Assembly (NCBI RefSeq): GCF_003334255.1
Contig: NZ_QOWU01000010.1
Reading direction: 5' to 3' (one strand)
Source: Escherichia coli
GTDB taxonomy: Bacteria; Pseudomonadota; Gammaproteobacteria; Enterobacterales; Enterobacteriaceae
Length of the DNA: 64,000 nt
Below the pieces are notes generated by a model that did no database searches, was not told the DNA's origin, and saw nothing but the letters and a program-made list of their open reading frames with translations. Positions 3,057 through 48,830 of this stretch are shown here, one piece after another (within the stretch, counting starts at the first letter, position 1; the number at the start of each line of letters is the position of its first letter). The translations under genes were made by a program, and so were the position numbers.

Positions 3057-3328
3057 AAAAGGTCCATAAAATAATTAATACCAAAGGGGTAGGTATTATT
3101 AGTGATGATAAAATTTCACCAAAAGTGAACGCTTGTGTTATTACAATAATAAGAATGCACTGATGGCAAATATTCAGGGATGAAAAACTGCTCTGAAAAG
3201 AGTAACGCGCTTTACTATCCCTGACAATCACCAACAACATCGAACAAGATAATAAATTCCTGGTTTAATATCCGACAAGTGAAAACATGCACCCGGACGG
3301 GCAGCATGTCGCTCCACAAGTGCAGAGC

Positions 3329-33038: not shown

Positions 33039-33060
33039 ACGGCCTCTGCTGAGGCCGTCA
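33039..33060. terminator. Bidirectional hairpin between convergent pntB and tqsA
   Basis: Inverted repeat GACGGCCTC-TGCT-GAGGCCGTC (9-bp stem) between the two stop codons. Confidence 0.5.
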
Positions 33061-33963
33061 CTCTTTATTGAGATCGCTTAACAGAACGGCGATGCTTTGA
33101 CCTCCCGCTGTTTGTTCAAGCGCAATTTTGACAATAATTGTCAACGGCACGGAAAGCAGCATACCCACCGGTCCTAACAACCATCCCCAAAAAATCAACG
33201 ACAAAAATACCACCAATGTGGAAAGCCCCAGCCCACGCCCCATGATACGCGGCTCCAGAATATTGCCGAAGACCAGATTAATCAGCAGATATCCCGCCAG
33301 CACCAGCAACGCTTCGTAGAAGCCATTAAACACCAGTACCTGAGCGATAGGGGGGATTGCCGCGAGGACTGAACCAATATTCGGGATGTAATTAAGCGCA
33401 AAGGCCAGCAATCCCCAGACAAAAGCGAAGCGAACATCGAGTGCGGCGAGCATCGCCCAGGCGACCAGGCCGGTGATGATGCTGATGGCTGTTTTCAGCA
33501 CCAGATAATGAGAAACACTGTCAATCGCACGTTGAATCGCCGCCATCCCTTCAACCGGACGCGCCATCATTTGCTGAAATTTTCCGGGCAATTGTGGCAC
33601 TTCGAGCAGCATAAACAGCACCGTCAGCAGCAATAAAAATATTGATGACATGGCATTAGATAACTGCGTCAATAAGTTGGTGAGCAACGTCATCGCCGCG
33701 TTCGGATCAATATAATGCGCCAGCTGGTCAACTGAGACGTCAATCCCTACGCGTTGCAACAACGGTTCAAGCGCTTGCAGCGGCGTCATAATAGAGTTGC
33801 GATATTGCGGTAACGTCCGCGTCAACTCGTTGAGCGCGGAACCCAGATAAGCTAATAGCAACACCATCGCCATCACGATGATGGTCATCAAAATCGACAC
33901 CGCCAGTACACGCGGCACACGCCAGCGGACCATGTGTTGCACCAGCGGGTTAAGAATAACAGC
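33058..33963 (-). pseudogene. tqsA: tqsA (ydgG) 3' fragment: AI-2 exporter lacking its first 45 codons because of island insertion
   Basis: Minus-strand coding sequence ...[27 protein letters not shown]... to stop matches TqsA residues 44-344; sequence 5' of 33964 is unrelated and enters an integrase gene. Confidence 0.88.
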
Positions 33964-33964
33964 A
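33956..33964. repeat. Left att core copy (ATAACAGCA) at island/tqsA junction (attL)
   Basis: Identical 9-mer at both junctions; flanking sequence on the outer sides corresponds to contiguous tqsA codons. Confidence 0.7.
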
Positions 33965-34091
33965 TTTTATCATTTAGTGTTTTTTGCTGTTTCATAATGT
34001 TTCAGGCTGTGCATTATGTTTTTGATTATCAACAGATTTGTGATTTTCCTTGTTCCAGCTTGTTTCACGTTGTAGCCCTTTGTGCAACGAT

Positions 34092-34115
34092 CGGTGTAGT
34101 CACTGGTGTAGTCAC
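34092..34115 (+). repeat. Tandem 10-bp repeat GGTGTAGTCA x2 (candidate integrase arm-type site) upstream of int
   Basis: CGGTGTAGTCACTGGTGTAGTCAC 25 bp upstream of the int start; a near-identical copy lies at 48725-48747 near the other island end. Confidence 0.5.
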
Positions 34116-34139
34116 TTTTTCGTAAAGAGGGGGTAAAAC

Positions 34140-35369
34140 GTGAGCAGAGCAATGAACAAACTGAGCGATACCTTGCTAAGGAAACTTCATGGTAAGCCAG
34201 CGGAGAAAAACACGTTTTATAGTGATGGCGGAAACCTGAGCGTGAAATATTTAACATCAGGGAAATTGACCTGGTATTTCACATACAGGGCCGGAACGGG
34301 AAGGGAGACACGACCCGAACGCATTAAGCTGGGAAGTTATCCTGATCTGAGCCTGAAAGCAGCCAGGGAAAAAGCCGCACAGTGTCGCACATGGCTGGCT
34401 GAGGGGAAAAATCCACGTCATGAGATGAATTACACCGTACAGGAAGCGTTAAAGCCCGTAACGGTTGGCGATGCGCTCACCTACTGGCTTGAGTATTACG
34501 TAAAGGAAAACCGCGTGGATTATATCGCCCTGAAAAGGCGACTTAATAATCACGTAATACAGCAGATTGGTGCTATGCCGCTGGATAAATGCGAGCTACG
34601 GCACTGGCTGGCCTGTTTTGACCAGGTGGCAAAGCGAACGCCTGTTACTGCCGGATTCGTGCTACAGGCGTGCAAACAGGCGCTTAAGTTCTGCCGTAGG
34701 CGGCGCTATGCAATCAGCAACGTTCTGGACGATCTGAACGTGGCGGACGTTGGGAAAAAACCGGATATAAGCGAACGTGTCTTAAGTAACAAAGAACTTG
34801 GCGAATTATTGCAGGCACTGGACAAAAAAATATTTTCCCCTTACTACGTCGCGTTAATCCGCCTCCTGATTGTCTTCGGAGCCAGGACGGTAGAACTGAG
34901 GCTATCGGAGATCGGGGAGTGGGATTTTACGGAAATGCTATGGACCGTTCCGAAGGAGCACAGCAAAACGAAGGTCGCAATATTCCGGCCCATACCGGAA
35001 GCGATCCTGCCGTTCGTCACGCAGCTGGTGGAGCAGAACAGGCACACGGGCTTATTGCTGGGGGAAGTGAAACAGGAGGCCAGCGTATCGCAGTATGGAA
35101 GATTAGCGCACAGGAGGCTTAATCATCCTCACTGGTCACTGCATGACATCCGGCGCACCTTTACAACCATGCTGAACGATTTAGGCGTTGATCCGCATGT
35201 CGTGGAGCAGCTTACAGGTCATCAGATGCCAGGAATGCAGCGAGTTTATAATCATTCCCGTTATCTGGATGCTAAACGCAATGCGCTGGATATGTGGATG
35301 GAGCGGTTAGGGATACTGGCGGGAACACATGAAAACGTAACCACGCTACCAGTAGCCAGAAGAAAATAA
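34140..35369 (+). CDS. int: Tyrosine integrase, P4-type (DUF4102 arm-binding N-terminal domain plus catalytic domain ending ...HDIRRTF...Y), 409 aa from GTG
   Basis: N-terminal KLSDTLLRKLHGKPAEKNTFYSDGGNLSVKYLTSGKLTWYF resembles the P4 integrase family N-terminus; C-terminal HxxRRT and downstream Tyr; GTG at 34140 has a GAGGGGG RBS (alternative ATG at 34152). Confidence 0.88.
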   Translation: MSRAMNKLSDTLLRKLHGKPAEKNTFYSDGGNLSVKYLTSGKLTWYFTYRAGTGRETRPERIKLGSYPDLSLKAAREKAAQCRTWLAEGKNPRHEMNYTVQEALKPVTVGDALTYWLEYYVKENRVDYIALKRRLNNHVIQQIGAMPLDKCELRHWLACFDQVAKRTPVTAGFVLQACKQALKFCRRRRYAISNVLDDLNVADVGKKPDISERVLSNKELGELLQALDKKIFSPYYVALIRLLIVFGARTVELRLSEIGEWDFTEMLWTVPKEHSKTKVAIFRPIPEAILPFVTQLVEQNRHTGLLLGEVKQEASVSQYGRLAHRRLNHPHWSLHDIRRTFTTMLNDLGVDPHVVEQLTGHQMPGMQRVYNHSRYLDAKRNALDMWMERLGILAGTHENVTTLPVARRK

Positions 35370-35743
35370 TTTTTTTCGTGTTTTTTCAGTATGCGCATAC
35401 TGGATATGCGAACAGATACAACATGCAACAATGAGCAACAATGCGGAACAACTACGAACAAGAGACGAAAAAGTGTACGGATTTATAAGTAGCTGATTTT
35501 TAATGTGTTACTGGTTTTTTATACACTAGCGAATCACTCTTTAAATAGCGAGAAAAAAGGCATGAAACAATATTTTATGCCTTTGTATTAACATGAATTT
35601 AAATGATTTTATCCTGATTATTCCTGTTTCTGTAAACCATACGACCTCAACATTTGCCAACTCTGAATCATCCTGACACAATCAGACACATCCCAACGCA
35701 ATAGAACACGAAATAACTCTTTAAGAAACGAAAGGGGGCAATA

Positions 35744-35932
35744 GTGTTAAGCACTGATCGGTTTATACGTGAAAAAGAATGCGAAAAGCTAACAGGCCTT
35801 AGCCGCTCATGCCGCTACCGCCTGGAAAAGGCCGGACAATTCCCATCACGTCGTAAACTTGGCGGTCGTTCCGTTGGCTGGTCTTTATCCGAGGTTCTGG
35901 CCTGGAAGGATAGCTGCAAGGCAGTTCATTAA
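35744..35932 (+). CDS. alpA: AlpA-family transcriptional regulator / excisionase-like HTH protein (62 aa, GTG start)
   Basis: LSTDRFIREKECEKLTGLSRSCRYRLEKAGQFPSRRKLGGRSVGWSLSEVLAWKDS fits the AlpA/Vis-type small HTH family; RBS AGGGGG 5 nt upstream. Confidence 0.75.
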   Translation: MLSTDRFIREKECEKLTGLSRSCRYRLEKAGQFPSRRKLGGRSVGWSLSEVLAWKDSCKAVH

Positions 35933-36432
35933 TCACGCTGGCGGCACACAGCCGCCACACATCAATCATCTGAACACAGAGCTATAACCATGAAGATTGA
36001 ATATACGCCAGAACGTGGGCGGGGATTCGTTCGCCCTGGTGAGACTGGAAAACCACAAAATTGGGGTTTTTCAGGCATAAAAAAAGCGGCCCCGAAATGG
36101 AGCCGCCTTTCTGAACAGATAACACGCTGCGCCGTTTGTGTGTGTGATCCCAAACATAAGCACGGGGATGATAGCCGCTATCAGGCTGGTGGGCAATGCA
36201 ATCAGTCTGGTTCAGTTCGTTGCCATACCTGCAATGAGCGCTTTTCCCTGTACTCTTTAAGGAATTGCTCAAGGGCAAAAGCACATGGCGCGAATCTTTC
36301 TGATTCATGCTCTATCTTTCTGCGCCGTCTTTTCCGTGCCGGTGATAATGTTTTGGTCAATTCTTTATCGGTCATTGTGTTGTCCTGCATAGCAATGCGC
36401 CGTAATACCTCACACCACGGCGCTGATAGTGA

Positions 36433-36738
36433 TTATTCTGATTCTTTGGCCTTGCGGCGCTGTAGTTCTTCACGAGCGATGGCGATAAGTTGCCCGAGTT
36501 CTTCCGTAGCTTTAATACCAATTTTTTCCACTTGCGCCAATGCATCGAGAGAAGAAATCAGAGGATTTTCACTGCTTCCTTCTGCCTGGCGGCGGGCGAT
36601 CTCCCCGCGCATGGCGGTTACTATGAATCCGGCGTTGCTTTCGCCGTCCAGTTTTACGGATTCCATGCCATCAAAAGCATCATGTGGGATACGAATTGAA
36701 ATCTGTTTTGATTTGTCGTTGATAGTGTTTTTTGCCAT
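36433..36738 (-). CDS. Hypothetical protein (101 aa), leftward-transcribed; candidate island regulator
   Basis: Start at Met 14 of the ORF, with AGGAGA RBS 7 nt upstream; the only clearly leftward gene in the island, divergent from the replication operon; function unknown. Confidence 0.5.
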   Translation of the reverse strand: MAKNTINDKSKQISIRIPHDAFDGMESVKLDGESNAGFIVTAMRGEIARRQAEGSSENPLISSLDALAQVEKIGIKATEELGQLIAIAREELQRRKAKESE

Positions 36739-36925
36739 GTGCATTCTCCTAAACAAAAGATGTGATTCAGTATACACAAAAAAGAATCACAAAAAACACT
36801 TGACCTGTGATTCAGTTGAATTTAATTTAAATCACACCTCAGTAAGAGGATGTAAACGACAACGCCCCGAACTGTTTGCGGCAGTAGCGGGGCGTCTAAC
36901 CAAACCGTTAACAGGAGTAACGATT

Positions 36926-37123
36926 ATGGCTGGAACACAGCATACCCCACGTCTGGCGCACACACAAACTGCCTTTGTGTGGCGTTTTCTGGCACTAAGT
37001 GCCGGAGAATCTCAAATCATCCACGTAACCGCCTGGACGGAACGCGAAGCGCGTAGCCGTTGCCCGTCCGGTTGTGTTGCTGTATTCGCCGCCCGTATTC
37101 GTCAGGGGGTGTGCCATGCCTGA
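36926..37123 (+). CDS. Small protein (65 aa), first gene of rightward operon; possibly Icd-like (function uncertain)
   Basis: ATG at 36926 preceded by AGGAG RBS (ACAGGAGTAACGATTATG); C-terminal part of the spurious long ORF 35990-37123; stop overlaps next gene start. Confidence 0.5.
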   Translation: MAGTQHTPRLAHTQTAFVWRFLALSAGESQIIHVTAWTEREARSRCPSGCVAVFAARIRQGVCHA

Positions 37124-37436
37124 CATGACCAATTACCAGTACCTGATTAATCCGCATTTTAACTGTGAGCATGATATTGCTAAAAAGGTTTATTCCGCTG
37201 CGGATGGGGCTACTGACAATATATCAATGGCTGTTTCGTCAATTGGTAGCCTGATGTGGTATGCGTCAGAAAATAAGGAATATGACGAAAAGGCCATGCG
37301 CATTGATATGGGTAATATTGGTTTGTTACTGGCAATGCTTGGACATTTTGATATTTCGTTACGGTGCACCATTGAAAATGCCACAGATGCATTAAATGCT
37401 ATAAAGAAAGCGAATACTGATTCAAATCGGGGATAA
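37116..37436 (+). CDS. Hypothetical protein (106 aa)
   Basis: ATG at 37116 overlapping the upstream stop (translational coupling); no recognisable motif. Confidence 0.5.
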   Translation: MPDMTNYQYLINPHFNCEHDIAKKVYSAADGATDNISMAVSSIGSLMWYASENKEYDEKAMRIDMGNIGLLLAMLGHFDISLRCTIENATDALNAIKKANTDSNRG

Positions 37437-37442
37437 ATAATC

Positions 37443-37742
37443 ATGAGAACGTATTTATCTGGCTTTACTGCCAGCGGTTATGCACACCCCAAAATTATCC
37501 CCGGCGCTATTTATCTGGATAAGAACGGTAACAGAGTAACGGTAAAAGAACTGATGTTTGACCGTGTGTATTTTATTCGTGATGGCTATTCATTTCATAG
37601 TTCGCTGAACGTGGAGATCTTTATTAGCAGATTCCGGCGGGAAATCCCGCTTTCCAGAAATAACCATGTGTCATGTATGGATGTTGATAAAAAACTACAG
37701 GAACTGAAAAACATGATTGCCGCGTGGAGAGAGCAGAAATGA
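37443..37742 (+). CDS. Hypothetical protein (99 aa)
   Basis: ORF directly upstream of and overlapping the primase gene start; no recognisable motif. Confidence 0.5.
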   Translation: MRTYLSGFTASGYAHPKIIPGAIYLDKNGNRVTVKELMFDRVYFIRDGYSFHSSLNVEIFISRFRREIPLSRNNHVSCMDVDKKLQELKNMIAAWREQK

Positions 37743-39556
37743 AAAAAGCGCCAAATTTAAAACACCAGCCGCGTGACAAAATGACGGAAGTCATCATTTT
37801 TGCGGGTAGTGATGCGTGGGCACATGCGAAGCAGTGGCAGGAACAGGACGGGCGACTGGCTGGCGATAACGTGCCACCTGTCTGGCTTGGAGAGCAACAA
37901 CTTGCCGAACTGGACAACCTGCAAATCGTACCGGACGGACGCTATCGCGTGCGTCTCTACCAGGCGGGGTTATTGCGTCCGGGGCTTGTTAATACCATCG
38001 GGCAGAAACTGGCAGCGGCAGGTGTCAGGGATGCTGATTATTACCCTGAAGGAATGCACAGCCAGAAACGGGAGAACTGGCGCGAATATCTGGAACGTGA
38101 GCGGGGAGAGCTGGCGGAAAAGAAAAAGGTAGTTGAACTGCCTGTAAAGAAAAAAGAGCGGGTAAAAGACGATAACGCTTCATCACTGGCGCTTAACCAG
38201 ATGGGAGCAAGTCAACGCGGCGAAGTTCTCCTGGCACATTATGGCGGTGAACTGGCGATTCATGCTGACTCTGACACTGTTCACTATTACAACGGCGTTG
38301 TATGGGAGCCAGTACAGGATAAAGAATTACAGCGAGCTATGGCGCAGATTTTCATTGATGCGGAGATCAGCTATTCGCAGAACGCCATTAAATCGGCGGT
38401 CGATACCATGAAGTTAAGTTTGCCTGTAATGGGGAATACAGCCCGTAACCTGATTGGATTCAGTAACGGTGTTTTTGATACCCGGACAGGCGATTTTCGG
38501 GAGCATAACAAAAACGACTGGTTGTTAATTGCCAGTGAATTACCTTTCAGCCCACCAGCAGAGGGGGAAACGCTGGCAACACATGCGCCGAATTTCTGGA
38601 AGTGGTTACGCCGTTCGGTGGCTGAGAATGACCGCAAGGCGGATCGCGTACTGGCTGCATTATTCATGGTGCTGGCGAACCGGTACGACTGGCAGTTATT
38701 CATTGAGGTAACAGGTCCAGGGGGAAGTGGTAAAAGCGTGATGGCGGAGATTTGCACCATGCTGGCGGGTAAGGCCAACACGGTATCGGCAAGCATGAAG
38801 GCGCTGGAAGATGCCAGGGAACGCGCGTTAGTGGTTGGCTTTTCGCTGATTATCATGCCGGATATGACCCGTTACGCTGGTGATGGCGCAGGAATTAAGG
38901 CCATTACAGGCGGTGACAAGGTGGCAATCGACCCGAAGCATAAAGCCCCCTACTCAACACGCATTCAGGCGGTAGTGTTGGCGGTGAACAATAACGCCAT
39001 GTCATTCAGTGACCGCAGCGGGGGGATTTCACGTCGTCGGGTGATATTCAATTTTTCGGAGGTTGTACCGGAAAACGAACGCGACCCCATGCTGGCAGAA
39101 AAAATAGAAGGAGAGCTGGCGGTTGTGATTCGCCACCTGCTTACTCGTTTTTCTGACCAGGACGCAGCTAAACGCCTGCTGTATGAGCAGCAGAAATCAG
39201 AAGAAGCTCTGGTGATAAAACGCGAGGGCGATTCGCTGGTGGACTTCTGCGGCTATCTCATGTCGTCGGTAATGTGTGATGGTCTGTTAGTGGGTAATGC
39301 CGAAATTATTCCGTTCAGTCCGCGCAGGTATCTTTATCACGCCTATCTGGCATATATGAGGGCACACGGATTCGGTAAACCTGTAACACTGACGCGCTTC
39401 GGTAAAGATATGCCGGGGGCAATGGCGGAATATGGCAGGGAGTATATGAAACGGAAAACGAAGCACGGTTTGCGTTCAAACGTGACACTGACGGAGGAAT
39501 CAGAAGACTGGATGCCATCATGTGTATCGGTCACTAATGACGATAGCAAAAATTAA
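37739..39556 (+). CDS. Primase / replication initiator with P4/D5-type NTPase domain (605 aa)
   Basis: Walker A VTGPGGSGKS and downstream Walker B-like hydrophobic-acidic stretch in the C-terminal half (P4-family primase C-terminal domain architecture); GGAGAG RBS before ATG 37739; followed by an iteron array. Confidence 0.75.
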   Translation: MKKAPNLKHQPRDKMTEVIIFAGSDAWAHAKQWQEQDGRLAGDNVPPVWLGEQQLAELDNLQIVPDGRYRVRLYQAGLLRPGLVNTIGQKLAAAGVRDADYYPEGMHSQKRENWREYLERERGELAEKKKVVELPVKKKERVKDDNASSLALNQMGASQRGEVLLAHYGGELAIHADSDTVHYYNGVVWEPVQDKELQRAMAQIFIDAEISYSQNAIKSAVDTMKLSLPVMGNTARNLIGFSNGVFDTRTGDFREHNKNDWLLIASELPFSPPAEGETLATHAPNFWKWLRRSVAENDRKADRVLAALFMVLANRYDWQLFIEVTGPGGSGKSVMAEICTMLAGKANTVSASMKALEDARERALVVGFSLIIMPDMTRYAGDGAGIKAITGGDKVAIDPKHKAPYSTRIQAVVLAVNNNAMSFSDRSGGISRRRVIFNFSEVVPENERDPMLAEKIEGELAVVIRHLLTRFSDQDAAKRLLYEQQKSEEALVIKREGDSLVDFCGYLMSSVMCDGLLVGNAEIIPFSPRRYLYHAYLAYMRAHGFGKPVTLTRFGKDMPGAMAEYGREYMKRKTKHGLRSNVTLTEESEDWMPSCVSVTNDDSKN

Positions 39557-39569
39557 ACTTATGGAATAA

Positions 39570-39792
39570 CTGTTCACCACTGTTCACCCTGTCATAAATA
39601 TCTTTTGTATCAGTATGTTATAGGGTGAACAGTTATTTATGAACTGTTCACCAAACTATTCACTGTTCACCTTTTTGATTGTTTATTGAGCTTCAAGGGT
39701 GAACAGTGGTGAATAGTTGGTGAATAGTTTTTGTGAAACTGTTCACCCCTTAACATTATGAATTAAAAGATAAAATATCAAAAGGTGAACAG
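39570..39792. repeat. Iteron array (at least 8 copies of CTGTTCACC / GGTGAACAG in both orientations): candidate island replication origin
   Basis: Copies at 39570, 39580, 39624(inv), 39644, 39663, 39698(inv), 39739, 39784(inv) plus GGTGAATAG variants at 39708 and 39718, in AT-rich DNA just after the primase gene. Confidence 0.65.
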
Positions 39793-39843
39793 GTGAAGGG
39801 TTAAAACGCAAAAATTTTAATTTACTGCTGTGAGATAAAGCCT

Positions 39844-40089
39844 ATGACAGCGAAGCACACAAAAAAATCACAATCGCACGCCCTTGATTTGACGGAACAC
39901 TGGTTAAGGGTGTCGATAAAAATCATCGACCGCAACGCCGGGGAAGGATATGCGAAAGCACATCCCGAACTGATTAGCTCATTCATGACAACGGCAGCTG
40001 CAAACTTTGCCACGCTGACAGAACGGGAGATTGCCGAAGCGGAACAGGTGACAACCATCAACGTTAAAACCGGAGAGCAGACAGCATGA
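39844..40089 (+). CDS. Hypothetical protein (81 aa)
   Basis: ORF immediately upstream of and overlapping the ssb start (ATGA overlap); weak RBS. Confidence 0.4.
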   Translation: MTAKHTKKSQSHALDLTEHWLRVSIKIIDRNAGEGYAKAHPELISSFMTTAAANFATLTEREIAEAEQVTTINVKTGEQTA

Positions 40090-40496
40090 CAGCACAGATA
40101 GCAGCTTACGGGCGGCTGGTGGACGACCCGCAGGTAAAACAGACCAGTAAGGGCACACCGATGACGCTGGCGCGTATGGCGGTATCGTTGCCATGTAGTC
40201 AGGCGCAGGATGGGCAGGCGACGTTATGGCTATCGGTCATCGCATTTGGTAAGCAGGCCGACTTCCTGGCTAAACATCAAAAAGGCGACGTTGCCAGCGT
40301 ATCCGGCACGATGCAGGTCAGCCAGTGGACCGGACAGAACGGGGAAACGCGGCAGGGTTATCAGGTTATTGCAGACAGCGTAATCAGTGCCCGTGCGGCA
40401 CGTCCTGGCGGGAACAGACGCAAAACCACAGGCACACAGGGTAATCAGCCACCAGCGGGAGGCGATGACCCTTACGGTGACGGTATTCCGTTCTGA
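40086..40496 (+). CDS. ssb: Single-stranded DNA-binding protein (136 aa)
   Basis: OB-fold-like N-terminal region, Gly/Pro/Gln-rich linker and acidic C-terminal tail ...DDPYGDGIPF, the hallmark SSB protein-interaction tail. Confidence 0.75.
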   Translation: MTAQIAAYGRLVDDPQVKQTSKGTPMTLARMAVSLPCSQAQDGQATLWLSVIAFGKQADFLAKHQKGDVASVSGTMQVSQWTGQNGETRQGYQVIADSVISARAARPGGNRRKTTGTQGNQPPAGGDDPYGDGIPF

Positions 40497-40506
40497 GGGG
40501 GTGGCG

Positions 40507-40779
40507 ATGGTACATGACCGCATAGCGGAAGAACTCGAGGCGAAAGGCTTTTACCGGAGGGCGGCGGCGCGATGGGGTGAAGTCATGCTGCTGGTGGAGA
40601 CAGACAAGGAACGGCATCAGGTTACGATGCGACGGCTGGAATGTTCCAGGAAGGCACAGAAGCCACCGGAGCCGCCGGATAACTTCGGAGACCTGAGAAA
40701 GGCAGTAGATCGCACTTATGCTGAAATGGGTATAGATGGTGTAAGCGATGAAATATGGCGTAATTACCCAGACAGCTAA
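40507..40779 (+). CDS. PerC-family-like small transcriptional activator (90 aa)
   Basis: MVHDRIAEELEAKGFYRRAAARWGEVM... resembles the conserved PerC motif (LEAxGxxRRAAxRW) as I remember it; GAGGGGG RBS. Confidence 0.5.
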   Translation: MVHDRIAEELEAKGFYRRAAARWGEVMLLVETDKERHQVTMRRLECSRKAQKPPEPPDNFGDLRKAVDRTYAEMGIDGVSDEIWRNYPDS

Positions 40780-40784
40780 TCAAC

Positions 40785-40808
40785 AGCCGGAGAAATCCGG
40801 CTTTTTTT
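40785..40808 (+). terminator. Intrinsic terminator
   Basis: AGCCGGAGAAATCCGGCT followed by TTTTTTT. Confidence 0.65.
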
Positions 40809-40903
40809 GCACCAGTTGAAACGGTATGGCGCATTACCGGGTTTTCGTCACGGTCAGGCATAGTTACTATCTGAAACAAACAGACACAACAGAGGAAAAA
40901 ACA

Positions 40904-41128
40904 ATGCCGATGAAATTTGATGAGATATTAAAACAGCGTGATAAATACCATGCTGACAACATGGAGACGATGAGCATCAATGATTACCGCGCATTCCTGG
41001 AGACGGGCGCACTGATTGAAAAGGATCAGCATGGTTTTGTGAGATGTGCTCTGTCCGGTGAAATGCTGGCGGTAAATCCTGAACAGATAGATGCATTGAT
41101 AGAATTTCTGAAAGGGATCAGGGACTGA
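40904..41128 (+). CDS. Hypothetical protein (74 aa)
   Basis: Start at internal Met with GAGGAAAAAACA-ATG RBS; followed by a terminator almost identical to the one at 40785. Confidence 0.45.
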   Translation: MPMKFDEILKQRDKYHADNMETMSINDYRAFLETGALIEKDQHGFVRCALSGEMLAVNPEQIDALIEFLKGIRD

Positions 41129-41138
41129 GCACGCATAC

Positions 41139-41160
41139 AGCCGGAGCAATCCGGCTTTTT
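41139..41160 (+). terminator. Intrinsic terminator (near-duplicate of 40785-40808)
   Basis: AGCCGGAGCAATCCGGCT followed by TTTTT. Confidence 0.65.
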
Positions 41161-41420
41161 GTCATTTTTTGTAAATTATTTGTTCGTGGTTGTTCCACGT
41201 TGTTCACTGACAGGATCGGCATATTTTACCCGAACTGAATCATGAGTATTCTCGCCCGTGGTGCCAGGACGCTGGGGCCACTTTCCCGCCTGTTAATGTG
41301 CTCGCCAATATTCATTACCAGGCGGGAAAACGATCGGTGCGATTGCTGATTTCCTTATGAAAAACGGTTGAGTTTTTGCCGCGTCCTGGAGTTCCTTACT
41401 TAACCCCAGGACTTTTTTTT

Positions 41421-42578
41421 ATGCCGAGAATAATCGAATTACGCCAGCAGAAAACCGCCATTAAAAATCAGATGCGCGACATGCTGGAGAACGCGGAAAA
41501 AGAAAACCGCAGCCTTAACGATGCAGAGGGCGCAAAATTTGACGAATTACGCGCTAAAGCTGAATCCCTCGATAAAGACATTTCCCGCCTTGAAGCCATT
41601 GCAGACGAAGAGCGCAGCAAGCCAGGTAAAAGCAGCCAGACCACTGACCCGGCAGAACTCCGCAACTACATCCTGACAGGTGAAACCCGCGCATTAAGTA
41701 CAGGCGTTCCCGCTGATGGTGGTTATACCGTTATCCCCGAACTGAACACCGAAATCATGCGAATGCTGACGGATGAATCCACCATGCGCCGCATCTGTAC
41801 CGTGAAGAAAATCAGCAGCAACGAGTTTAAGCAGCTTGTTTCCGCTGGCGGTGCGACCGTTAACCACGGTGAAGAGGGTAAGACACGCGAACAGACCAGC
41901 ACCCCGCAGATTAACGAGGTGAGCATTAAGCTGTATCCGGTCTATGCGTACCCGCGCACCACACAGGAAATCGTGGATTTTTCCGATGTGGACATCCTTT
42001 CATGGCTGACGGGTGAGATTGGCGACACCTTCACGGAAACCGAAGAAAGCGATCTGGTTGTGGGCGACGGTGACAAAAAAGCAAAAGGTTTTTTATCCGT
42101 ACCCCGTGCAGAGAAGAACGACAAAGAGCGTGATTTTGGTACGTTGCAGGTAATTAAACCTTCCGAATCTCTGGCGTGGACATCTGCGGACCCGCTGATC
42201 GACCTGAAATTTGCATTACGTAAAAAATACCGCAAAAACGCGGTCTGGGTGGTTAACTCCACGACGGCGGCAAAACTTCAGAAGGTGAAGAACGCGAACG
42301 GTGATTACATCTGGCGCGACCGTTTACAGGCGGGTGATCCTGATACGTTGCTGGGCCTTCCGGTCGAATATCTGGAGTTTATGCCTGATAACGTTATTGC
42401 CCTGGGTGACTTCAAACGCGGTTACTACATTGTTGATCACGAAACAGGTGTTCGCACCAGACCGGACAACCTCACAGAGCCGGGCTTCATCAAAATTTTC
42501 ACGCAGAAATATTTAGGCGGTGGCGTGGTGGATTCGAACGCGATCAAGATTCTGGAACTGCCACAGGACGACGATTAA
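41421..42578 (+). CDS. Major capsid protein, HK97 fold, with N-terminal coiled-coil scaffolding (delta) domain (385 aa from ATG 41421)
   Basis: N-terminal coiled-coil region (IELRQQKTAIKNQMRDMLENAEKENRSLNDAEGAKFDELRAKAESLDKDISRLEAIADEE) followed by a region typical of HK97-family capsid proteins; ORF track start 41376 is a TTG extension; strong terminator follows. Confidence 0.85.
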   Translation: MPRIIELRQQKTAIKNQMRDMLENAEKENRSLNDAEGAKFDELRAKAESLDKDISRLEAIADEERSKPGKSSQTTDPAELRNYILTGETRALSTGVPADGGYTVIPELNTEIMRMLTDESTMRRICTVKKISSNEFKQLVSAGGATVNHGEEGKTREQTSTPQINEVSIKLYPVYAYPRTTQEIVDFSDVDILSWLTGEIGDTFTETEESDLVVGDGDKKAKGFLSVPRAEKNDKERDFGTLQVIKPSESLAWTSADPLIDLKFALRKKYRKNAVWVVNSTTAAKLQKVKNANGDYIWRDRLQAGDPDTLLGLPVEYLEFMPDNVIALGDFKRGYYIVDHETGVRTRPDNLTEPGFIKIFTQKYLGGGVVDSNAIKILELPQDDD

Positions 42579-42590
42579 CAGCATACAGAA

Positions 42591-42620
42591 GGGGCTTAAA
42601 AGCCCCTTTAGTGTTTTATG
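42591..42620 (+). terminator. Intrinsic terminator after major capsid gene
   Basis: GGGGCTT-AA-AAGCCCC hairpin followed by a T-rich tract. Confidence 0.65.
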
Positions 42621-42632
42621 GGTGAAAAAATT

Positions 42633-43190
42633 ATGAAGAGTATGGAAATCCGGTCATCGGAAATCACCACCAGCGCCAGCAACACGCTTACAGGCTACGT
42701 TGTTCGCTGGGATAAGCTTTCAGAGCTGCTATGGGGGGAGTTTTACGAAAAATTCCAGCGGGGAGCGTTTACTGAATGGCTTGCGGCGGGTAATGACGTT
42801 CGCGGCCTGTATGAGCATGACCACAGCATGTTGCTGGGGCGTACCCGTTCCGGCACGCTGAAACTGGAAGAGGACGAAACAGGGTTACGCTTTGAACTGA
42901 CCCCACCGGATACCAGTACAGGGCGCGACGTTATCGAACTGGTTAAGCGTGGGGACATCTCGGGGATGAGCTTTGGCTTTCGCTCCCGTAAGGATGTATG
43001 GGATACCACAACAGATCCATGCGTGCGCACCGTGCTGGTGGCGGAACTGTACGAAATTACCGTTACATCGGTACCGGCTTACCCCGATTCCGGCGTGGAG
43101 CTGGCCCGCCGTTCCCTGTATGAGCAGCACCCCGAAAAAATGCCGCGTGCGGATAATCGCCGCTGGTGGGTGGATTTAGCGGGGGTGTGA
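42633..43190 (+). CDS. Prohead maturation protease, HK97 family (S78-like), about 186 aa
   Basis: Sequence typical of HK97-type prohead proteases (GYVVRWDKLS..., YEHDHSMLLGRTRSGTL, GDISGMSFGF); start ambiguous among ATG 42618/42633/42642. Confidence 0.8.
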   Translation: MKSMEIRSSEITTSASNTLTGYVVRWDKLSELLWGEFYEKFQRGAFTEWLAAGNDVRGLYEHDHSMLLGRTRSGTLKLEEDETGLRFELTPPDTSTGRDVIELVKRGDISGMSFGFRSRKDVWDTTTDPCVRTVLVAELYEITVTSVPAYPDSGVELARRSLYEQHPEKMPRADNRRWWVDLAGV

Positions 43191-43191
43191 T

Positions 43192-44403
43192 ATGTGGCTT
43201 TTCAGAAGAAAAAAAGAGCAGCGCAGCATGACGCTTGATGAATTTATGGCGCTGGCTGGCACATCGAACACGGGGGCGGGTGAGTACGTATCATCGGGGA
43301 CAGCGGAATCACTGCCCGCCGTCATGAACGCCGTGACGGTCATCTCTGAGGCGGTGGCTACCATGCCGTGTTACCTGTACCTGGTACGCAATGAGAAGGG
43401 GAAGGAGGCCCGCGAGTGGCTTGATTCTCATCCGGTCGATCACATCCTCAACGAGCGCCCGAACGCGTGGCAGACTCCCTACCAGTTTAAGCGAATGATG
43501 ATCCGCCACTGCCTGTTAAACGGTAATGCTTATGCGGTGATTCAGTGGGGGCGTGATGGTTTTCCGGTGGCTTTACATCCTTACCCGCCGCAGTCGGTGA
43601 ACGTGGAGCAGACAGGCGAACACAACTGGCGCTACTGCATCACTGACGCCTACACCGGAAACACCCGCAACTATTTACCGTGGGAGGTTCTCCACCTTCG
43701 TTACTCCACGGATGACGGTTTTATGGGGCGCTCACCTGTAACCATCTGCCGCGAATCGCTGGGGCTTGGGCTGGCCCAACAACGCCACGGCGCGAGCGTG
43801 ATGCGTGATGGCATGATGGCGGCAGGGGTTATCACGTCAGGCGAATGGCTGGACGGCGTGAAGGGCAAACAGGCATTAGCCGCACTGGAACGCTACAAAG
43901 GGGCCAGAAACGCCGGAAAAACGCCCATCCTTGAAGGGGGTATGAGCTATCAGCAGCTGGGCATGAGTAATCAGGATGCTGAATGGCTGGCCTCCCGTCG
44001 CTTCACCATTGAAGACATCGCCCGAATGTTCAACGTCTCGCCGATTTTTCTGCAGGAATACAGCAACAGCACCTACAGCAATTTCAGCGAGGCAAGCCGC
44101 GCATTTCTCACCATGACAATGCGCCCGTGGCTGGCGAACTTTGAGCAGCAGATAAAAAACGCCCTGCTGGTGGCCTCGCCTGTACCTGGTATCCGGTATC
44201 AGGTGGAGTTTGACAGCGCGGACCTGTTACGGGCCACACCTGGCGAACGCTTTGCCACCTATGAACGCGGCATCAAATCCGGCGTTATGTGCCCGAACGA
44301 AGCCCGCGAACGTGAAGGGCTGTCCCCGCGTGATGGTGGTGATGAGTTCAGCCAGGCATGGAAACAGGAAGTAAAAATCAGCGAGGGAGAAAAACCGGAA
44401 TGA
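43192..44403 (+). CDS. Portal protein, HK97 family (403 aa)
   Basis: Size, position and conserved portal-like core (…LLNGNAYAVIQWGRDG…, …ILEGGMSYQQLGMSNQDAEWL…); immediately follows the protease with 1-nt spacing. Confidence 0.8.
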   Translation: MWLFRRKKEQRSMTLDEFMALAGTSNTGAGEYVSSGTAESLPAVMNAVTVISEAVATMPCYLYLVRNEKGKEAREWLDSHPVDHILNERPNAWQTPYQFKRMMIRHCLLNGNAYAVIQWGRDGFPVALHPYPPQSVNVEQTGEHNWRYCITDAYTGNTRNYLPWEVLHLRYSTDDGFMGRSPVTICRESLGLGLAQQRHGASVMRDGMMAAGVITSGEWLDGVKGKQALAALERYKGARNAGKTPILEGGMSYQQLGMSNQDAEWLASRRFTIEDIARMFNVSPIFLQEYSNSTYSNFSEASRAFLTMTMRPWLANFEQQIKNALLVASPVPGIRYQVEFDSADLLRATPGERFATYERGIKSGVMCPNEAREREGLSPRDGGDEFSQAWKQEVKISEGEKPE

Positions 44404-44738
44404 ACATAGGGCGACTGCGTGACAGGGTAACGATTCAGACCCTGAAACAGACCAGGGATATAACCGGCGAAATACTCGAAACGTGGGAGGACGGTCACAC
44501 ACTCTGGGCAAGCGTGAACATGATCAGCAGCAAGGAGGCCATTTCATCGGGTGCAGAGCTGGCGATTGGTACCGTAAGGATCTGGATACGGTACCGGAAG
44601 GACATCAATGCCACCAGCCGGATAAAGGTCAGTACGGGGCCGCTGGCGGGGCGTGTACTGAATATCATCGGGCAGCCGCTGCCGGATGCCGCCAGGACAC
44701 GCCTTGAAATTCTTTGTCGTGAGGGCGCGGAAAAATGA
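44400..44738 (+). CDS. Head closure / head-tail adaptor protein (112 aa)
   Basis: MNIGRLRDRVTIQTLKQTRD... resembles the head-tail joining family; ATGA overlap with portal stop; GAGGGAGA RBS. Confidence 0.7.
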   Translation: MNIGRLRDRVTIQTLKQTRDITGEILETWEDGHTLWASVNMISSKEAISSGAELAIGTVRIWIRYRKDINATSRIKVSTGPLAGRVLNIIGQPLPDAARTRLEILCREGAEK

Positions 44739-45031
44739 CAGAAGAACTTATCACCCTGGAAGAAGTGAAACTCCATTGCCGCATCGATGGCGACGAGGAA
44801 GACCAGTTAATCAGCGGATACATCGCCGCATCGCTTGAGGCGTGCCAGATACACATAGGCAGGCGCTTTGATGACGGGCTGGAGTTCACGCCAGCCATAA
44901 AGATTGGCTGCATGATGTTTATCGCTCACCTGTATGAAAATCGCCAGATTGTCGCGGATAACGCAAAAACACGCGTACCCATGACGATTGGTGCACTCTG
45001 GACGGCTTACCGTGATGTGGGGGTGTACTGA
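44735..45031 (+). CDS. gp6-like head-tail connector protein (98 aa)
   Basis: MTEELITLEEVKLHCRIDGDEEDQLISGYIAASLEACQIHIG... resembles the gp6-like connector family N-terminus. Confidence 0.7.
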   Translation: MTEELITLEEVKLHCRIDGDEEDQLISGYIAASLEACQIHIGRRFDDGLEFTPAIKIGCMMFIAHLYENRQIVADNAKTRVPMTIGALWTAYRDVGVY

Positions 45032-45471
45032 TGCCGTGGCAACCATTAAGACGATGCACAGAACCAGGCTGTAACAGGCGCGTGAAGTCCGGCAAGTGTG
45101 AGGAGCACAGGCGGGCGGCATGGCGTGCAGAGGATGCCAGACGAGGACACCGCCGCGCGCGTGGGTACTCCAGACAGTGGGACAAATACCGCGCCATGTA
45201 TCTGAGTAAAAACCCGTTATGCGTGCGATGCCTTGAGAAGGGGATATATACGCCCGCCGTGGTGGTGGATCACATTATCCCGATTAATGGCGGTGATGAT
45301 GTTCTCTTCTGGCCCGAATGGAACCATCAGCCATTGTGCCAGGCGTGCCATAACCAGAAAACGAAATGGCTTGATCCGGCAACAAAAAGCAAGCGTGCCG
45401 CAGGTGGATTTCGTGAAGAGGAAGAACGGGCCGCTAACCGCAATAACTGGATGTATGACGCTGATGAATGA
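45031..45471 (+). CDS. HNH endonuclease (packaging-associated), 146 aa
   Basis: Cys pairs plus VVDHIIPINGGDD...NHQPLCQACHNQK (HNH motif); located immediately upstream of TerS as in HK97-like cos packaging modules. Confidence 0.85.
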   Translation: MPWQPLRRCTEPGCNRRVKSGKCEEHRRAAWRAEDARRGHRRARGYSRQWDKYRAMYLSKNPLCVRCLEKGIYTPAVVVDHIIPINGGDDVLFWPEWNHQPLCQACHNQKTKWLDPATKSKRAAGGFREEEERAANRNNWMYDADE

Positions 45472-45759
45472 GCGGGAACAAAACCGCCTTATCCGTGGAC
45501 TTATAAGGCAGCGTGACGCATGGAAGACACAGGAAACAGGGCATAAAGATAAAGCGTCAGGACGCGCAGAACGCATCACAGCGAAGCGATTAACCGACCG
45601 TGACCGCGAGGTTATGGAATGTTTCCGCAATCGCTGATGAGGCTGTATGACGGGGTGGGGGGCGTTTTCAGGACAAACCCGACCCCGCCGGGCACCGACC
45701 GCCTCCTCAAATTTTTATGCACGGGAATTTTTTGAAAAATAATCTGACGAAAAATAAGC

Positions 45760-46116
45760 ATGGCAAGACCACCGAAAGCCCCCGCCTACCTGGATGACAT
45801 CGCCGTGAAGCAGTGGCGGGAAAAATCGCGGCAGCTTGCGGAACGGGGAGACCTGACCCCCGCCGACTGGAGCAATCTGGAACTGTATTGTGTCAACTAC
45901 TCCATTTACCGGAAAGCCGTCGCAGACCTTGCGGCGCGCGGGTTCAGCATTGTTAACAGTCAGGGCGGCGAGAGCAGAAACCCCGCATTAAGCGCGAAAT
46001 CAGACGCTGAAAGGGTGATGATAAAAATGGCCTCCTTGCTCGGTTTTGACCCGATAAGCCGCCGTAAAAACCCACCGGAAACAGAAGAAGAGGACGAGCT
46101 TGACCGCCTGGAATAA
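45760..46116 (+). CDS. Terminase small subunit, P27 family (118 aa)
   Basis: Resembles P27-type TerS (AVKQWREKSRQLAERGDLTPADWSNLELYCVNYSIYRKA); overlaps TerL start. Confidence 0.8.
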   Translation: MARPPKAPAYLDDIAVKQWREKSRQLAERGDLTPADWSNLELYCVNYSIYRKAVADLAARGFSIVNSQGGESRNPALSAKSDAERVMIKMASLLGFDPISRRKNPPETEEEDELDRLE

Positions 46117-47761
46117 GTACGCAGAAGACGTAAAAACGGGCAAAATTCAGGCCTGTAAACGGTTAAAACAGGCCGTTAAACGGTACTTTTCGGACCTTAA
46201 AAGCCCCCTTTACACGTTCGATCGTGAGGTTGTGGATCGGTTTATTGCCTTTTCCAGGGTGTGCCCGCACGTAAAAGGGCCGATGCGTGGCAGACCCATT
46301 GAGCTGGAGCCGTGGCAGCAGTTCGCCTTTGCGTGCATCCTCGGCTTTAAGGTTAAGGCCACCGGACGGCGCAAATATACGAGCGCCTTTATCGAAGTGC
46401 CGCGCAAAAATGCTAAATCAACGACCGCCGCGATTCTGGCTAACTGGTTTCTGATTATGGAGAACGGTCAGCAGGATATTTACACCGCAGCGGTGAGCCG
46501 TGACCAGGCGAGGATCGTATTTGATGATGCGCGTCAGATGTGCATTTTATCCCGACCGTTACGCAGGCGGGTGAATATTCAGGCGCATAAGGTGATACAC
46601 CCGAAAACCAACAGCCTGTTAAAGCCGCTGGCAGCAAAAGCGGCAACTATCGAGGGCACAAACCCCAGTCTTTCTATCGTGGACGAATACCACCTACACC
46701 CCGACAACGGCGTATATTCTGCGCTTGAACTGGGGATGGGGGCACGTCCCGAAGGGCTGTTATTTGCCATTACCACATCGGGAAGTAACGTCGTTTCAGC
46801 CTGTAAGCAGCATTATGATTATTGCTGCCAGATCCTGGACGGCGAAGAGGTTAACGAATCGCTTTTTGTGCTGATTTACGAACTGGACGACGAAAACGAG
46901 GTTGATGATCCGGAGATGTGGATAAAGGCGAACCCTAATATCGATGTTTCCGTGGATCGTGAAAAACTGGCCTCAACCATTCAGAAAGCGCGGGGTATTC
47001 CGTCGCAATGGGTGGAGATGATGACAAAGCGATTTAATATCTGGTGTCAGGGGACTACCCCGTGGATGGGTAATGGTGCATGGGCTGAGTGTGCCGGAAC
47101 GTTCACGGAGGAAGATTTACACGGTCAGGAGTGTTACGCGGGGCTGGACTTATCATCAACCAGCGATATTTCCAGCGTGTGCTATGCCTTTCCGGTCGGT
47201 AAAACCATTATGATGATTTCCCGTCATTATCTGCCGGAGTTCCAGCTACAGAACCCCGCCAATAAAAACCGCGCTGTCTATCGTCAGTGGGCTAAAGCAG
47301 GCTGGATACGCACAACGCCTGGCGACTGCATTGATTACGACCGGATCAGAGATGACATCATGCAGGACGCGGAGAAATTTAATATCAGGCTGGTGGGCTT
47401 TGATACGTGGAACGCCACGCATCTCAGAACGCAATTACAGGGGGCAGGTTTTGAGGTGGAGCCGTTCCCGCAAACCTACCTCAGATTCAGTCCGGCGGCG
47501 AAATCGTTCGAAGTTTTTGTTAACCGCAGGGTGATTGTGCATCGTGGCGATCCGGTGTTGTCCTGGTCGATGAGTAACGTCGTGATGCAGAGTGACGCGA
47601 ACGCCAATATCAAGCCGAACAAGAAAAAATCACCGAACAAGATAGACCCGAGCGTGGCGGCGCTGATGGCGTTTGGTACATTCCAGGCAGAGCATGAGGA
47701 TTTTGCTTTTGATATAAGCGACAGCCACCGCCAGAAACTGGAAGAATTTAGCGGGGTGTAA
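46100..47761 (+). CDS. Terminase large subunit (553 aa; apparent TTG start)
   Basis: ATPase and nuclease domains in typical TerL arrangement; no in-frame ATG/GTG near the 5' end, TTG at 46100 preceded by GAGGA. Confidence 0.85.
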   Translation: MTAWNKYAEDVKTGKIQACKRLKQAVKRYFSDLKSPLYTFDREVVDRFIAFSRVCPHVKGPMRGRPIELEPWQQFAFACILGFKVKATGRRKYTSAFIEVPRKNAKSTTAAILANWFLIMENGQQDIYTAAVSRDQARIVFDDARQMCILSRPLRRRVNIQAHKVIHPKTNSLLKPLAAKAATIEGTNPSLSIVDEYHLHPDNGVYSALELGMGARPEGLLFAITTSGSNVVSACKQHYDYCCQILDGEEVNESLFVLIYELDDENEVDDPEMWIKANPNIDVSVDREKLASTIQKARGIPSQWVEMMTKRFNIWCQGTTPWMGNGAWAECAGTFTEEDLHGQECYAGLDLSSTSDISSVCYAFPVGKTIMMISRHYLPEFQLQNPANKNRAVYRQWAKAGWIRTTPGDCIDYDRIRDDIMQDAEKFNIRLVGFDTWNATHLRTQLQGAGFEVEPFPQTYLRFSPAAKSFEVFVNRRVIVHRGDPVLSWSMSNVVMQSDANANIKPNKKKSPNKIDPSVAALMAFGTFQAEHEDFAFDISDSHRQKLEEFSGV

Positions 47762-47774
47762 TGAGGTCAGCAGC

Positions 47775-48056
47775 ATGACAGAAGCCGAAATAACGGGATT
47801 AATCCGCCGCGTTGCCGGAATCAGCCAGCAGGCTGACGAACAGGCCACGCAGCCGGACAGCGTGACAGCCGAAAACTATGCGCGTGTTGTTGCTGAGGTG
47901 ATGCGCCGTGATGGTATAGAACTTAATGGCGTGGATATGCGCAACATACGAACCAGAGTTCTTGAGTTGCTGGCCTACCGTCGCCGCGTGGAGATGTATC
48001 GGGAGAAGGAGAAAATAACGTACCACTGGAAGAAGCCGGAGCGGTTGCGGCGGTAA
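47775..48056 (+). CDS. Hypothetical protein (93 aa), last gene of island
   Basis: ATG 47775 with GAGG RBS 8 nt upstream; no recognisable motif. Confidence 0.5.
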   Translation: MTEAEITGLIRRVAGISQQADEQATQPDSVTAENYARVVAEVMRRDGIELNGVDMRNIRTRVLELLAYRRRVEMYREKEKITYHWKKPERLRR

Positions 48057-48349
48057 CTGGTTGATATTCCCGACGGACCAAAAATGGGTGGCTACATCCC
48101 TCGCTTCTGAGGACTGTTAACAAGCTGCCTGAAAGACAGTCACAAACTACGAAATTTTCGCAGTTTAATTAATGATCAGCTTAATCGCTAACCCGCTGAT
48201 ATTTTCGGAAACCTCAATTTGAGGAAGTCGGCGCGGTAACTCGCTGAACTTTAAGCAAAGTGCAAAATTGCGCTTGCTGAATAATCATTATGATTACGCA
48301 GATGATTAAGGAATGACCGAAGGCGGAAATTCGCCTGTGGTTAATGGGG

Positions 48350-48462: not shown

Positions 48463-48724
48463 AGTGGCAACCATAACGACTTTCGTTACGGTTGATGCTT
48501 TTACCCCATTGGGGGAAAGGTATTACGATAATCATAACACCTACCGAACAGGTAAAGCCCACCAGCCTGATTAACGTTTAACCGGAAAAAAATTCCGGTA
48601 GGTGGGGATCCCCATATCGACATTAACGCCCCTCATGAATTGGTGCGCTTCCCCCTGGAAAGATGATCCGCCTGTATATTTCTTGTGTCTATTTGTTCCA
48701 CGTTGTTTCATACAGTGCACCGAA

Positions 48725-48747
48725 CGGTGTAGTCACTGGTGTAGTCA
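48725..48747 (+). repeat. Tandem 10-bp repeat GGTGTAGTCA x2 (second copy of candidate arm-type site)
   Basis: CGGTGTAGTCACTGGTGTAGTCA, same orientation as 34092-34115; preceded by TTGTTCCACGTTGTT, which recurs at 41190. Confidence 0.5.
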
Positions 48748-48821
48748 TTTTGCGATTTTTGGCACTTTTTGCGGTGAAAATTATTTAATTAAATCAACGT
48801 GTTATGTGAAATAAGTTATAT

Positions 48822-48830
48822 ATAACAGCA
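48822..48830. repeat. Right att core copy (ATAACAGCA) at island/tqsA junction (attR)
   Basis: Identical to 33956-33964; followed by contiguous tqsA 5' coding sequence. Confidence 0.7.

Follow-up and report, generated by a model that had tools for sequence, protein, structure and literature searches.

The 64-kb stretch of Escherichia coli DNA analyzed here (hereafter, the window) carries a capsid-forming phage-inducible chromosomal island (cf-PICI) of the EcCIEDL933-like kind, which is inserted in tqsA, and a shared repeat block lies near both of its ends. The block is a composite of two modules: module A, an array of TTGTTYC-type units whose TGT cores recur every 10-11 bp, and module B, a tandem 12-mer (GGTGTAGTCACT, twice). 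Judging from patterns of conservation, we consider it probable that the block is the protein-binding scaffold of the island's attachment site, in which module A would serve AlpA and module B the integrase, and that module A is reused at sites in the island's interior. Loci labeled L001-L219 are the related sequences that were fetched for comparison.

A preliminary description of this DNA had reported a block shared by 34046-34115 and 48696-48747 in the same orientation. Both sequences are present (TTCCTTGTTCCAGCTTGTTTCACGTTGTAGCCCTTTGTGCAACGATCGGTGTAGTCACTGGTGTAGTCAC and TTCCACGTTGTTTCATACAGTGCACCGAACGGTGTAGTCACTGGTGTAGTCA, respectively), and a repeat search of the window returned them as a 76-nt direct repeat with 76% identity (34043-34118 vs. 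48676-48751). Within it, the 23-mer CGGTGTAGTCACTGGTGTAGTCA is exact at 34092 and 48725, and the 15-mer TTGTTCCACGTTGTT at 48693 is found again, exactly, at 41190. Modules A and B are both present on both arms of attP, in one orientation (Table 1). The left arm carries, in addition, a core-proximal array of similar units (module A'), and an equivalent cluster is present in L002, L003, L006, L210, L214, and L215.

Comparison with island-free E. coli genomes placed the island at approximately 33956-48830 (14.87 kb): the match to the window ends at 33964 and restarts at 48822, with an overlap of 9 bp, ATAACAGCA. These breakpoints agree with the earlier placement of the right copy just inside the junction and the left copy just upstream of int. 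The att core was directly confirmed by L011, an 11,098-bp terminally redundant IMG/VR contig (IMGVR_UViG_3300045988_152974) that represents a sister PICI with the same integrase as the window island. Positions 1-310 of this contig contain a joined attP, running from the right-arm module B through GTTATATATAACAGCA, joined to TTTTATCATTTAGTG, and on to the left-arm modules A and B and int; the starts of the two B pairs are 233 bp apart across the core. The contig also shows that this type of island was sampled from a metagenome in an excised or concatemeric form. Among the other IMG/VR relatives (L010-L089), most begin at the int gene and are missing attL, and besides L011 this set was used for right ends.

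The comparison to the arm sites of an attP, made in the preliminary description for the end copies, holds: they are inside the element, flank the core in the same orientation, and are joined in L011. Module B repeats are distinct from the core and flank the crossover region from within the element, as expected of attP arm sites, and module A has the geometry of an array for a recombination directionality factor (RDF), with direct-repeat units about one helical turn apart in the att arms. The right arm contains, between module B and the core, a perfect match to the consensus for integration host factor (IHF), AATCAACGTGTTA; five such matches occur in the whole window on both strands, and this site is also kept in L001, L002, and L003.

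The architecture was then compared among E. coli islands at tqsA (L001), roxA/phoQ (L002, L005, and EcCICFT073, which is L219), allE/allC (L003), cspD/clpS (L004, L007, and L008), abgR/smrA (L006), and rcnB (L210), as well as relatives from Salmonella (L211-L213), Yersinia (L214), and Klebsiella (L215), whose integrases are 53-63% identical. Every island compared has the layout core, A-like array, spacer, A array, tandem B, and int, and, where right ends were included, A and B precede the core by 10-90 bp. This arrangement is kept at no fewer than seven integration sites and in four genera, while the flanks and spacers diverge. In the 95 related loci scanned that reach an end, the tandem NGTGnnGTnnnT was found at the ends only, always on the int strand. 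A tandem B lies 20-60 bp before int in the Salmonella, Yersinia, and Klebsiella relatives as well, with differing variants, and across genera there are six or more of these: GGTGTAGTCACT in the window and L001; GGTGTAGTTAAT in most other E. coli islands and L213; TGTGTGGTCAGT, three times, in L210; TGTGAGGTCAGT in L211; GTGCGGTCAGT in L212; GGTGTAGTCTAT and GGTGTAGTCTGT in L214; and GGTGCAGTCAGT, at both ends, in L215. A search of viral contigs with the degenerate pattern GGTGTAGNNNNTGGTGTAG was not used, as the matches listed were mostly unrelated coding repeats.

There is good circumstantial evidence, drawn from this variation, that module B follows the integrase and module A follows AlpA. 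The window and L002 have identical 50-nt A blocks at both ends and AlpA proteins that are 98% identical, while the four copies of B have all changed in concert, from GTCACT to GTTAAT, and the N-terminal 90 residues of the integrase are only 78% identical, the change being centered on SVKYLTSGK vs. SVRHSTSGL (residues 33-41). When L004, L007, and L008 are set against L002, B is the same and the integrase segment SVRHSTSGLLTWYF is identical in integrases that are ~76% identical overall; here it is AlpA that differs (60% identity), and at both ends A is TTGTTCG in place of TTGTTYC. Finally, L210 and L004 share the same AlpA type and the same A (TTGTTCG), but differ in B and in integrase (68% vs. 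75% identity to the query). The 62-aa AlpA is paired with TTGTTYC and the 70-74-aa allele (L004, L007, L008, and L210) with TTGTTCG; other A variants are TCGTCTA/TGGTTTA in L212, TTGTCCG in L213, and TTGTTCA in L214 and L215. In L212, L213, L214, and L215, the local A variant recurs in inverted orientation immediately before alpA.

The integrase homologs and the called genes are recorded with PF13356 (Arm-DNA-bind_3) and PF00589. An AlphaFold model of the integrase, built from a six-sequence alignment, predicts strands at residues 26-28, 33-37, 43-50, and 59-66 followed by a helix, with confidence scores (pLDDT) of 60-79 in this region; residues 33-41 would form a strand end and the hairpin loop of the N-terminal sheet, in a model that is poor overall. 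We read module B as putative integrase arm-type sites because it is restricted to the ends and changes in concert with the arm-binding domain of the integrase, and module A as candidate AlpA sites because it recurs within the island, its variants track the AlpA allele, and it resembles the sites of the RDF TorI. The preliminary description had likened the end copies as a whole to arm-type integrase sites; this reading is supported for the tandem GGTGTAGTCACT, but two modules had been merged there as one.

Phased runs (10-11 bp) of at least three TTGT occur five times in the 64-kb window on both strands, with four inside the island; the figure for block shuffles is 0.01. A position matrix was trained on the seven arm units only, and triplets were scored at 10-11-bp spacing. 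Three island sites outside the training set scored 27.9 (35451-35425, minus strand), 25.6 (40900-40873, minus strand), and 24.5 (41180-41206, plus strand), against a best score of 17.3 in host DNA and a maximum of 18.6 over 20 shuffled windows. The only phased TTGT run outside the island (3221-3247, minus strand; TTGTTCGATGTTGTTGGTGATTGTCAG) may be due to chance.

The internal copies, like module A', mostly lie beyond those recognized in the preliminary description. Beyond the int stop codon, at a distance of 46-92 nt, lies an inverted five-unit array that is conserved in L001, L002, L003, L005, L006, and EcCICFT073; in the last of these, both ends have the A and B blocks, and the inverted A array that follows int has six units. 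Weaker inverted units lie over the predicted -10 and leader of alpA. The promoter-like site that they overlap has a counterpart at the same position in L002 (TTGCCA-17-AACAAT), and alpA of EcCICFT073 is preceded by the same promoter-like site with A-like units. In L210 (11990-12030), L214, and L215, in which an extra gene lies between int and alpA, a GC-rich hairpin and T run are found immediately before the alpA start, and this hairpin contains A-like units. A further inverted cluster, directly 5' of an open reading frame (ORF) of 74 aa (40904-41128), is kept in L002 and L005; we rate it as possible only, because its weakest unit overlaps the ribosome-binding site of that ORF.

The preliminary description had also noted a partial copy before the major capsid gene, and had suggested that the same protein as at the ends, or AlpA, might act there. 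The copy exists (the 15-mer at 41190), as part of a longer array; it carries the TTGTT module only and no tandem 12-mer. Integrase is an unlikely occupant of this site because the 12-mer is missing, and AlpA is the better-supported candidate, given the comparable units in the alpA promoter region and the likeness to TorI sites. The array was found in all four cf-PICIs examined (the window island, L002, L003, and L210), in which it is nearly invariant while the sequence 3' of it diverges, and it is absent from EcCICFT073. In L003, a promoter-like site lies ~20 nt downstream of the array. Module B is absent from every internal module A site of the window island, and a scan for sigma-70 promoters found no promoter-like site before int. 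Two 96%-identical terminator-like hairpins (40783-40806 and 41137-41160) flank the 74-aa ORF, between the PerC-like gene and the capsid operon.

Table 1. Attachment-site features and module A copies of the island in tqsA (window coordinates)
Feature	Position	Strand	Remarks
att core, left copy (attL crossover region), ATAACAGCA	33956..33964	.	island-free genome matches; attP junction in L011
Module A', core-proximal, left arm: five TGTTTYA-like units, 10-bp spacing	33977..34024	+	TGT at 33978, 33988, 33998, 34008, 34017
Module A, left arm: TTGTTCC / TTGTTTC / TTGTAGC / TTGTGCA, 10-bp phased; putative AlpA/RDF sites	34050..34089	+	TGT at 34051, 34061, 34071, 34081
Module B, left arm: GGTGTAGTCACT twice; putative integrase arm-type sites, P'-like	34093..34116	+	ends 24 nt before int GTG
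int: tyrosine integrase, N-terminal Arm-DNA-bind_3 (PF13356) domain	34140..35369	+	start codon GTG
Module A, inverted, five units (TTGTTCG, TTGTTCC, TTGTTGC, TTGTTGC, TTGTATC)	35415..35461	-	46-92 nt after int stop codon
Promoter-like site before alpA, TTGCCA-17-CACAAT, with TG	35654..35682	+	consensus match only
Module A-like units, inverted, weaker (TTGTGTC, ATGTGTC, TTGCGTT, CGTGTTC)	35675..35712	-	over predicted -10 and leader of alpA
alpA, 62 aa	35744..35932	+	Pfam Phage_AlpA, E 5.6e-18
Possible extra module A cluster, inverted (TTGTGTC, TTGTTTC, weak third unit)	40873..40900	-	score 25.6
Intrinsic-terminator-like hairpin, then T run	41139..41156	+	immediately before capsid-proximal module A
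Module A before capsid operon: TTGTCAT, TTGTAAA, TTGTTCG, TTGTTCC, TTGTTCA; no module B	41159..41211	+	~210 nt before capsid ATG 41421
Module A, right arm: TTGTGTC / TTGTTCC / TTGTTTC	48683..48714	+	TGT at 48684, 48694, 48704
Module B, right arm: GGTGTAGTCACT GGTGTAGTCATT; putative integrase arm-type sites, P-like	48726..48749	+	72 bp before core
IHF-consensus match AATCAACGTGTTA, right arm, between module B and core	48792..48804	+	perfect match
att core, right copy (attR), ATAACAGCA	48822..48830	.	island-free genome matches; L011

The closest precedent for this layout is the recombination module of prophage KplE1 (CPS-53) and of HK620. In KplE1, attL overlaps the intS promoter; it contains two blocks with five sites for TorI in all (GTTCG/GATCG/GTCCG), of which the promoter-proximal block is 10-bp phased, and IntS arm-type sites come next (PMC2951348). 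In MG1655, the KplE1 attL has the sequence CAGTTCGtcaTGGTTCGcttCAGATCGttgaca, with three units spaced 10 bp apart beside the -35 and, past them, the arm sites that precede the intS ATG. The two systems share an integrase with a DUF4102/Arm-DNA-bind_3 N-domain (IntS in KplE1), the order core, RDF block, second 10-bp-phased RDF block (nnGTTCG), arm-type sites, and int start, and an RDF gene transcribed apart from int. They differ in that KplE1 arm sites have a TAAA motif in place of the tandem GGTG..GT 12-mer, and torI lies at the far end of the prophage, whereas the island's alpA follows int. In addition, PMC2951348 describes TorI sites in attL only, with none at late operons. The unit cores of module A (GTTCC/GTTCG/GTCCG) match TorI sites, but we take this likeness as suggestive only because TorI is a distant relative of AlpA.

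The island also resembles phage lambda attP (P1, P2, P'1-3; X1/X2; IHF) in having a heterobivalent integrase, a core with arm sites to either side, RDF sites in phase, and a site of the IHF consensus that lies between an arm and the core. The arm consensus of lambda, (C/A)AGTCACTAT, has AGTCACT in common with the island 12-mer. Unlike the island, lambda has an integrase N-domain of another family, RDF sites on one arm rather than RDF-like arrays on both, and arm sites in mixed orientations, where the 12-mer pairs of the island are both direct.

Among PICIs, EcCIEDL933 (the prototype cf-PICI) and EcCICFT073 (the prototype Gram-negative PICI) have the same int-alpA-primase backbone, identical module A blocks, and the same layout at both ends and after int; the capsid and packaging module of EcCIEDL933-type islands is ~96% identical to that of the window island. 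The window island is distinguished by an attB in tqsA rather than at roxA/phoQ, a different integrase allele, and the GTCACT variant of B. Published genetics agree with the reading of module A given here. In EcCICFT073, AlpA activates its own promoter, and its overexpression drives int-dependent excision and replication (PMC6092414); EcCIMP1 needs alpA in order to excise (PMC11773190), and EcCIEDL933 needs it in order to be induced (bioRxiv 10.1101/2022.09.08.507074). A dual role has been described for RdfS of ICEMlSymR7A, a small winged-helix RDF that binds attP and the promoters of its own regulon and oligomerizes along DNA (PMC11963761). Unlike RdfS sites, which have no clear consensus motif, the island units are well defined, with AlpA binding predicted. 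P2 Cox is another dual-function RDF. A search of the PDB with AlpA returned a single AlpA-family entry, 8c3t, which is unpublished and for which no paper was found.

We propose a mechanism in which the N-terminal domain of a heterobivalent tyrosine integrase would bind the module B pair on each arm of attP and bridge these arm sites to the core sites, building the intasome. AlpA, a small winged-helix protein, would polymerize on the phased module A units, coating one face of the DNA as a filament in the manner of Xis and TorI; by bending the arms, it may act as the RDF and permit excision. The array in the alpA promoter region would serve the positive autoregulation known from EcCICFT073, with a further array reused before the 74-aa ORF, and, in cf-PICIs only, AlpA would bind the array that lies just after a terminator and upstream of the capsid and packaging operon. 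Once triggered by a helper phage, AlpA would in this manner start excision, capsid production, and its own synthesis at the same time.

A more far-reaching reading, which we think unlikely, is that PICI AlpA goes beyond an excisionase-like activator and is a processive Q-like antiterminator, for which the arrays at the alpA promoter and at the post-terminator capsid site would be loading sites, enabling RNA polymerase to pass the terminators inside the island. Its basis is the placement of these sites and the terminators at 40785 and 41139. In Pseudomonas aeruginosa, the antiterminator AlpA uses an element, GGGACG-N5-GGTA, between the -35 and -10 and bypasses downstream terminators (PMC7969949). 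The two proteins belong to the same Pfam family, the predicted alpA promoter has a GGGAAC/GACAC-type unit across its spacer and -10, and intrinsic terminators lie downstream in the island operon. On the other hand, the motif is not an exact match, and the island arrays have three to six units and are found in the att arms as well. If true, a phage satellite would use one 62-aa protein to tie together excision, autoregulation, and the read-through of late genes.

Three other explanations for the block were weighed. Under the first, the TTGTT arrays are bound by some other factor (the conserved DUF4222 protein, a nucleoid protein of the host, or the factor with which helper phages induce alpA) and AlpA acts elsewhere. 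Helper phages do induce alpA transcription (PMC6092414), and DUF4222 is encoded in every relative examined; however, the array variants change with the island's AlpA allele, behavior that is not expected of a factor from a phage or from the host, and the arrays occupy both att arms, where an RDF is expected and for which the TorI layout of KplE1 is a direct precedent. We consider this explanation quite improbable.

It is also improbable, and somewhat more so, that both modules are integrase arm-type sites, with AlpA acting elsewhere or on transcription only, and with the internal TTGTT clusters either allowing integrase to regulate the alpA and capsid genes or being leftovers. Against it is the constancy of A in the window and L002, which differ in B and in the integrase N-domain, as are the tracking of AlpA by A in L210 vs. 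L004, the resemblance of A to TorI sites, and the presence of A in a promoter region for which AlpA, rather than Int, is the known activator (PMC6092414). What speaks for it is that both modules are on both arms, as arm sites would be, and that integrase and AlpA alleles often change together in distant relatives, so that A correlates with integrase there as well.

That the similarity of the ends is a relic of duplication or inter-island recombination, or reflects a small minus-strand ORF over attL (33970-34152), with no function as a site, is hardly credible: the blocks are 76% identical over 76 nt and a 60-aa hypothetical protein is annotated by RefSeq over the left block in two genomes, but the architecture persists despite diverged flanks and spacers, variation is concerted between both ends, the periodicity is 10-12 bp and not 3 bp, and the ORF is unannotated in L002-L008.

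Several points weigh against the assignment of module A to AlpA and module B to integrase. Co-variation was seen in only a few independent events, and the islands have a common ancestry. Among islands with different AlpA alleles, the capsid-proximal cluster hardly changes, and L213 shares the B of L002, yet the sequence of its integrase beta-hairpin is rather different. The structural model has a mean pLDDT of 46, and only its N-domain secondary structure was used, cautiously. TorI and AlpA are distant (BLASTP E 2e-4, 26% identity; TorI vs. Pfam Phage_AlpA, E 0.16). The alpA-proximal units overlap the predicted -10 and leader, a placement that usually leads to repression and not activation, and that would better suit a repressor or the loading of a Q-like protein. 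The AlpA of EcCICFT073 had no effect on Pint-lacZ (PMC6092414), though module A adjoins int; this null result fits a purely architectural role for module A near int, but is not positive evidence for it. Binding, footprint, or transcript data for this family were not found in the literature searched.

The architecture belongs to the KplE1/lambda class, and it upholds a model that already exists. Although Gram-negative PICIs and cf-PICIs have AlpA as their master switch, no map of its operators or of the att arms, and no description of integrase arm sites or AlpA sites in these islands, was found in the literature searched. What the comparison offers is (i) an attP map with a core, an IHF-like site, two AlpA-type arrays, and two integrase site pairs; (ii) a candidate AlpA box, GTTCC/GTTCG, that is 10-bp phased; and (iii) a candidate AlpA regulon that includes the cf-PICI capsid operon, with the extra prediction that an RDF-type array is reused there. 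The natural 12-mer variants (GTCACT, GTTAAT, GTCAGT, and others), paired with their integrase alleles, are ready material for specificity swaps, and such pairs could help to engineer PICI-based delivery vehicles toward chosen integration sites.

The insertion target is the 5' part of tqsA (minus strand), which the island splits. The coding sequence of this AI-2 (autoinducer-2) exporter gene is interrupted into pieces at 33058-33963 and 48822-48958 (both minus strand), each marked incomplete in RefSeq; the other islands of the family that were examined lie between annotated genes, unlike the window island. A tRNA target was ruled out, as the window contains no tRNA genes and the target is within tqsA. 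About 75% of the length of the window island is ~96% identical to the O157:H7 island between roxA and phoQ, which is an EcCIEDL933-type cf-PICI (bioRxiv 10.1101/2022.09.08.507074).

Gene content was taken from the RefSeq annotation of an island in strain G6/7 that is 99.8% identical to the window island. Its nonstructural genes encode a tyrosine integrase, an AlpA-type helix-turn-helix protein, a DUF4222 protein, a primase, an SSB, and a PerC-family regulator; the structural and packaging genes encode an HK97-type major capsid protein, prohead protease, portal, connectors, an HNH protein, a P27-type TerS, and TerL. No tail or lysis genes are annotated in that island. The features of a cf-PICI are all present, namely the int-alpA-primase backbone, a capsid and packaging set of its own, a length of ~15 kb, and a dedicated att site.

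The hypothetical protein annotated over the left att arm (WP_001332680.1) is probably a spurious call, because the region has a 10-12-bp repeat structure and the ORF is unannotated in L002-L008. Just 3' of the primase gene, at 39555-39772, CTGTTCACC iterons are arranged as long imperfect inverted repeats (56-nt arms with 75% complementarity and 36-nt arms with 81%), and these are probably the replication origin of the island; a role of the TTGTT arrays as origin was rejected in view of these separate iterons. The noncoding right end (48057-48620) contains several hairpin modules of ~40-70 nt, in which YTGATATTYYCGG is followed by an inverted repeat. Their number and order vary among related islands, with more in L002, and they could be packaging or RNA elements. 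Lastly, a perfect 18-nt inverted repeat (GGTAAAGCCCACCAGCCTGATTAAC) pairs 47384-47401, inside terL, with 48554-48571, near the right end, where the copy lies in a conserved noncoding stretch and is kept in L001-L003 and L005.

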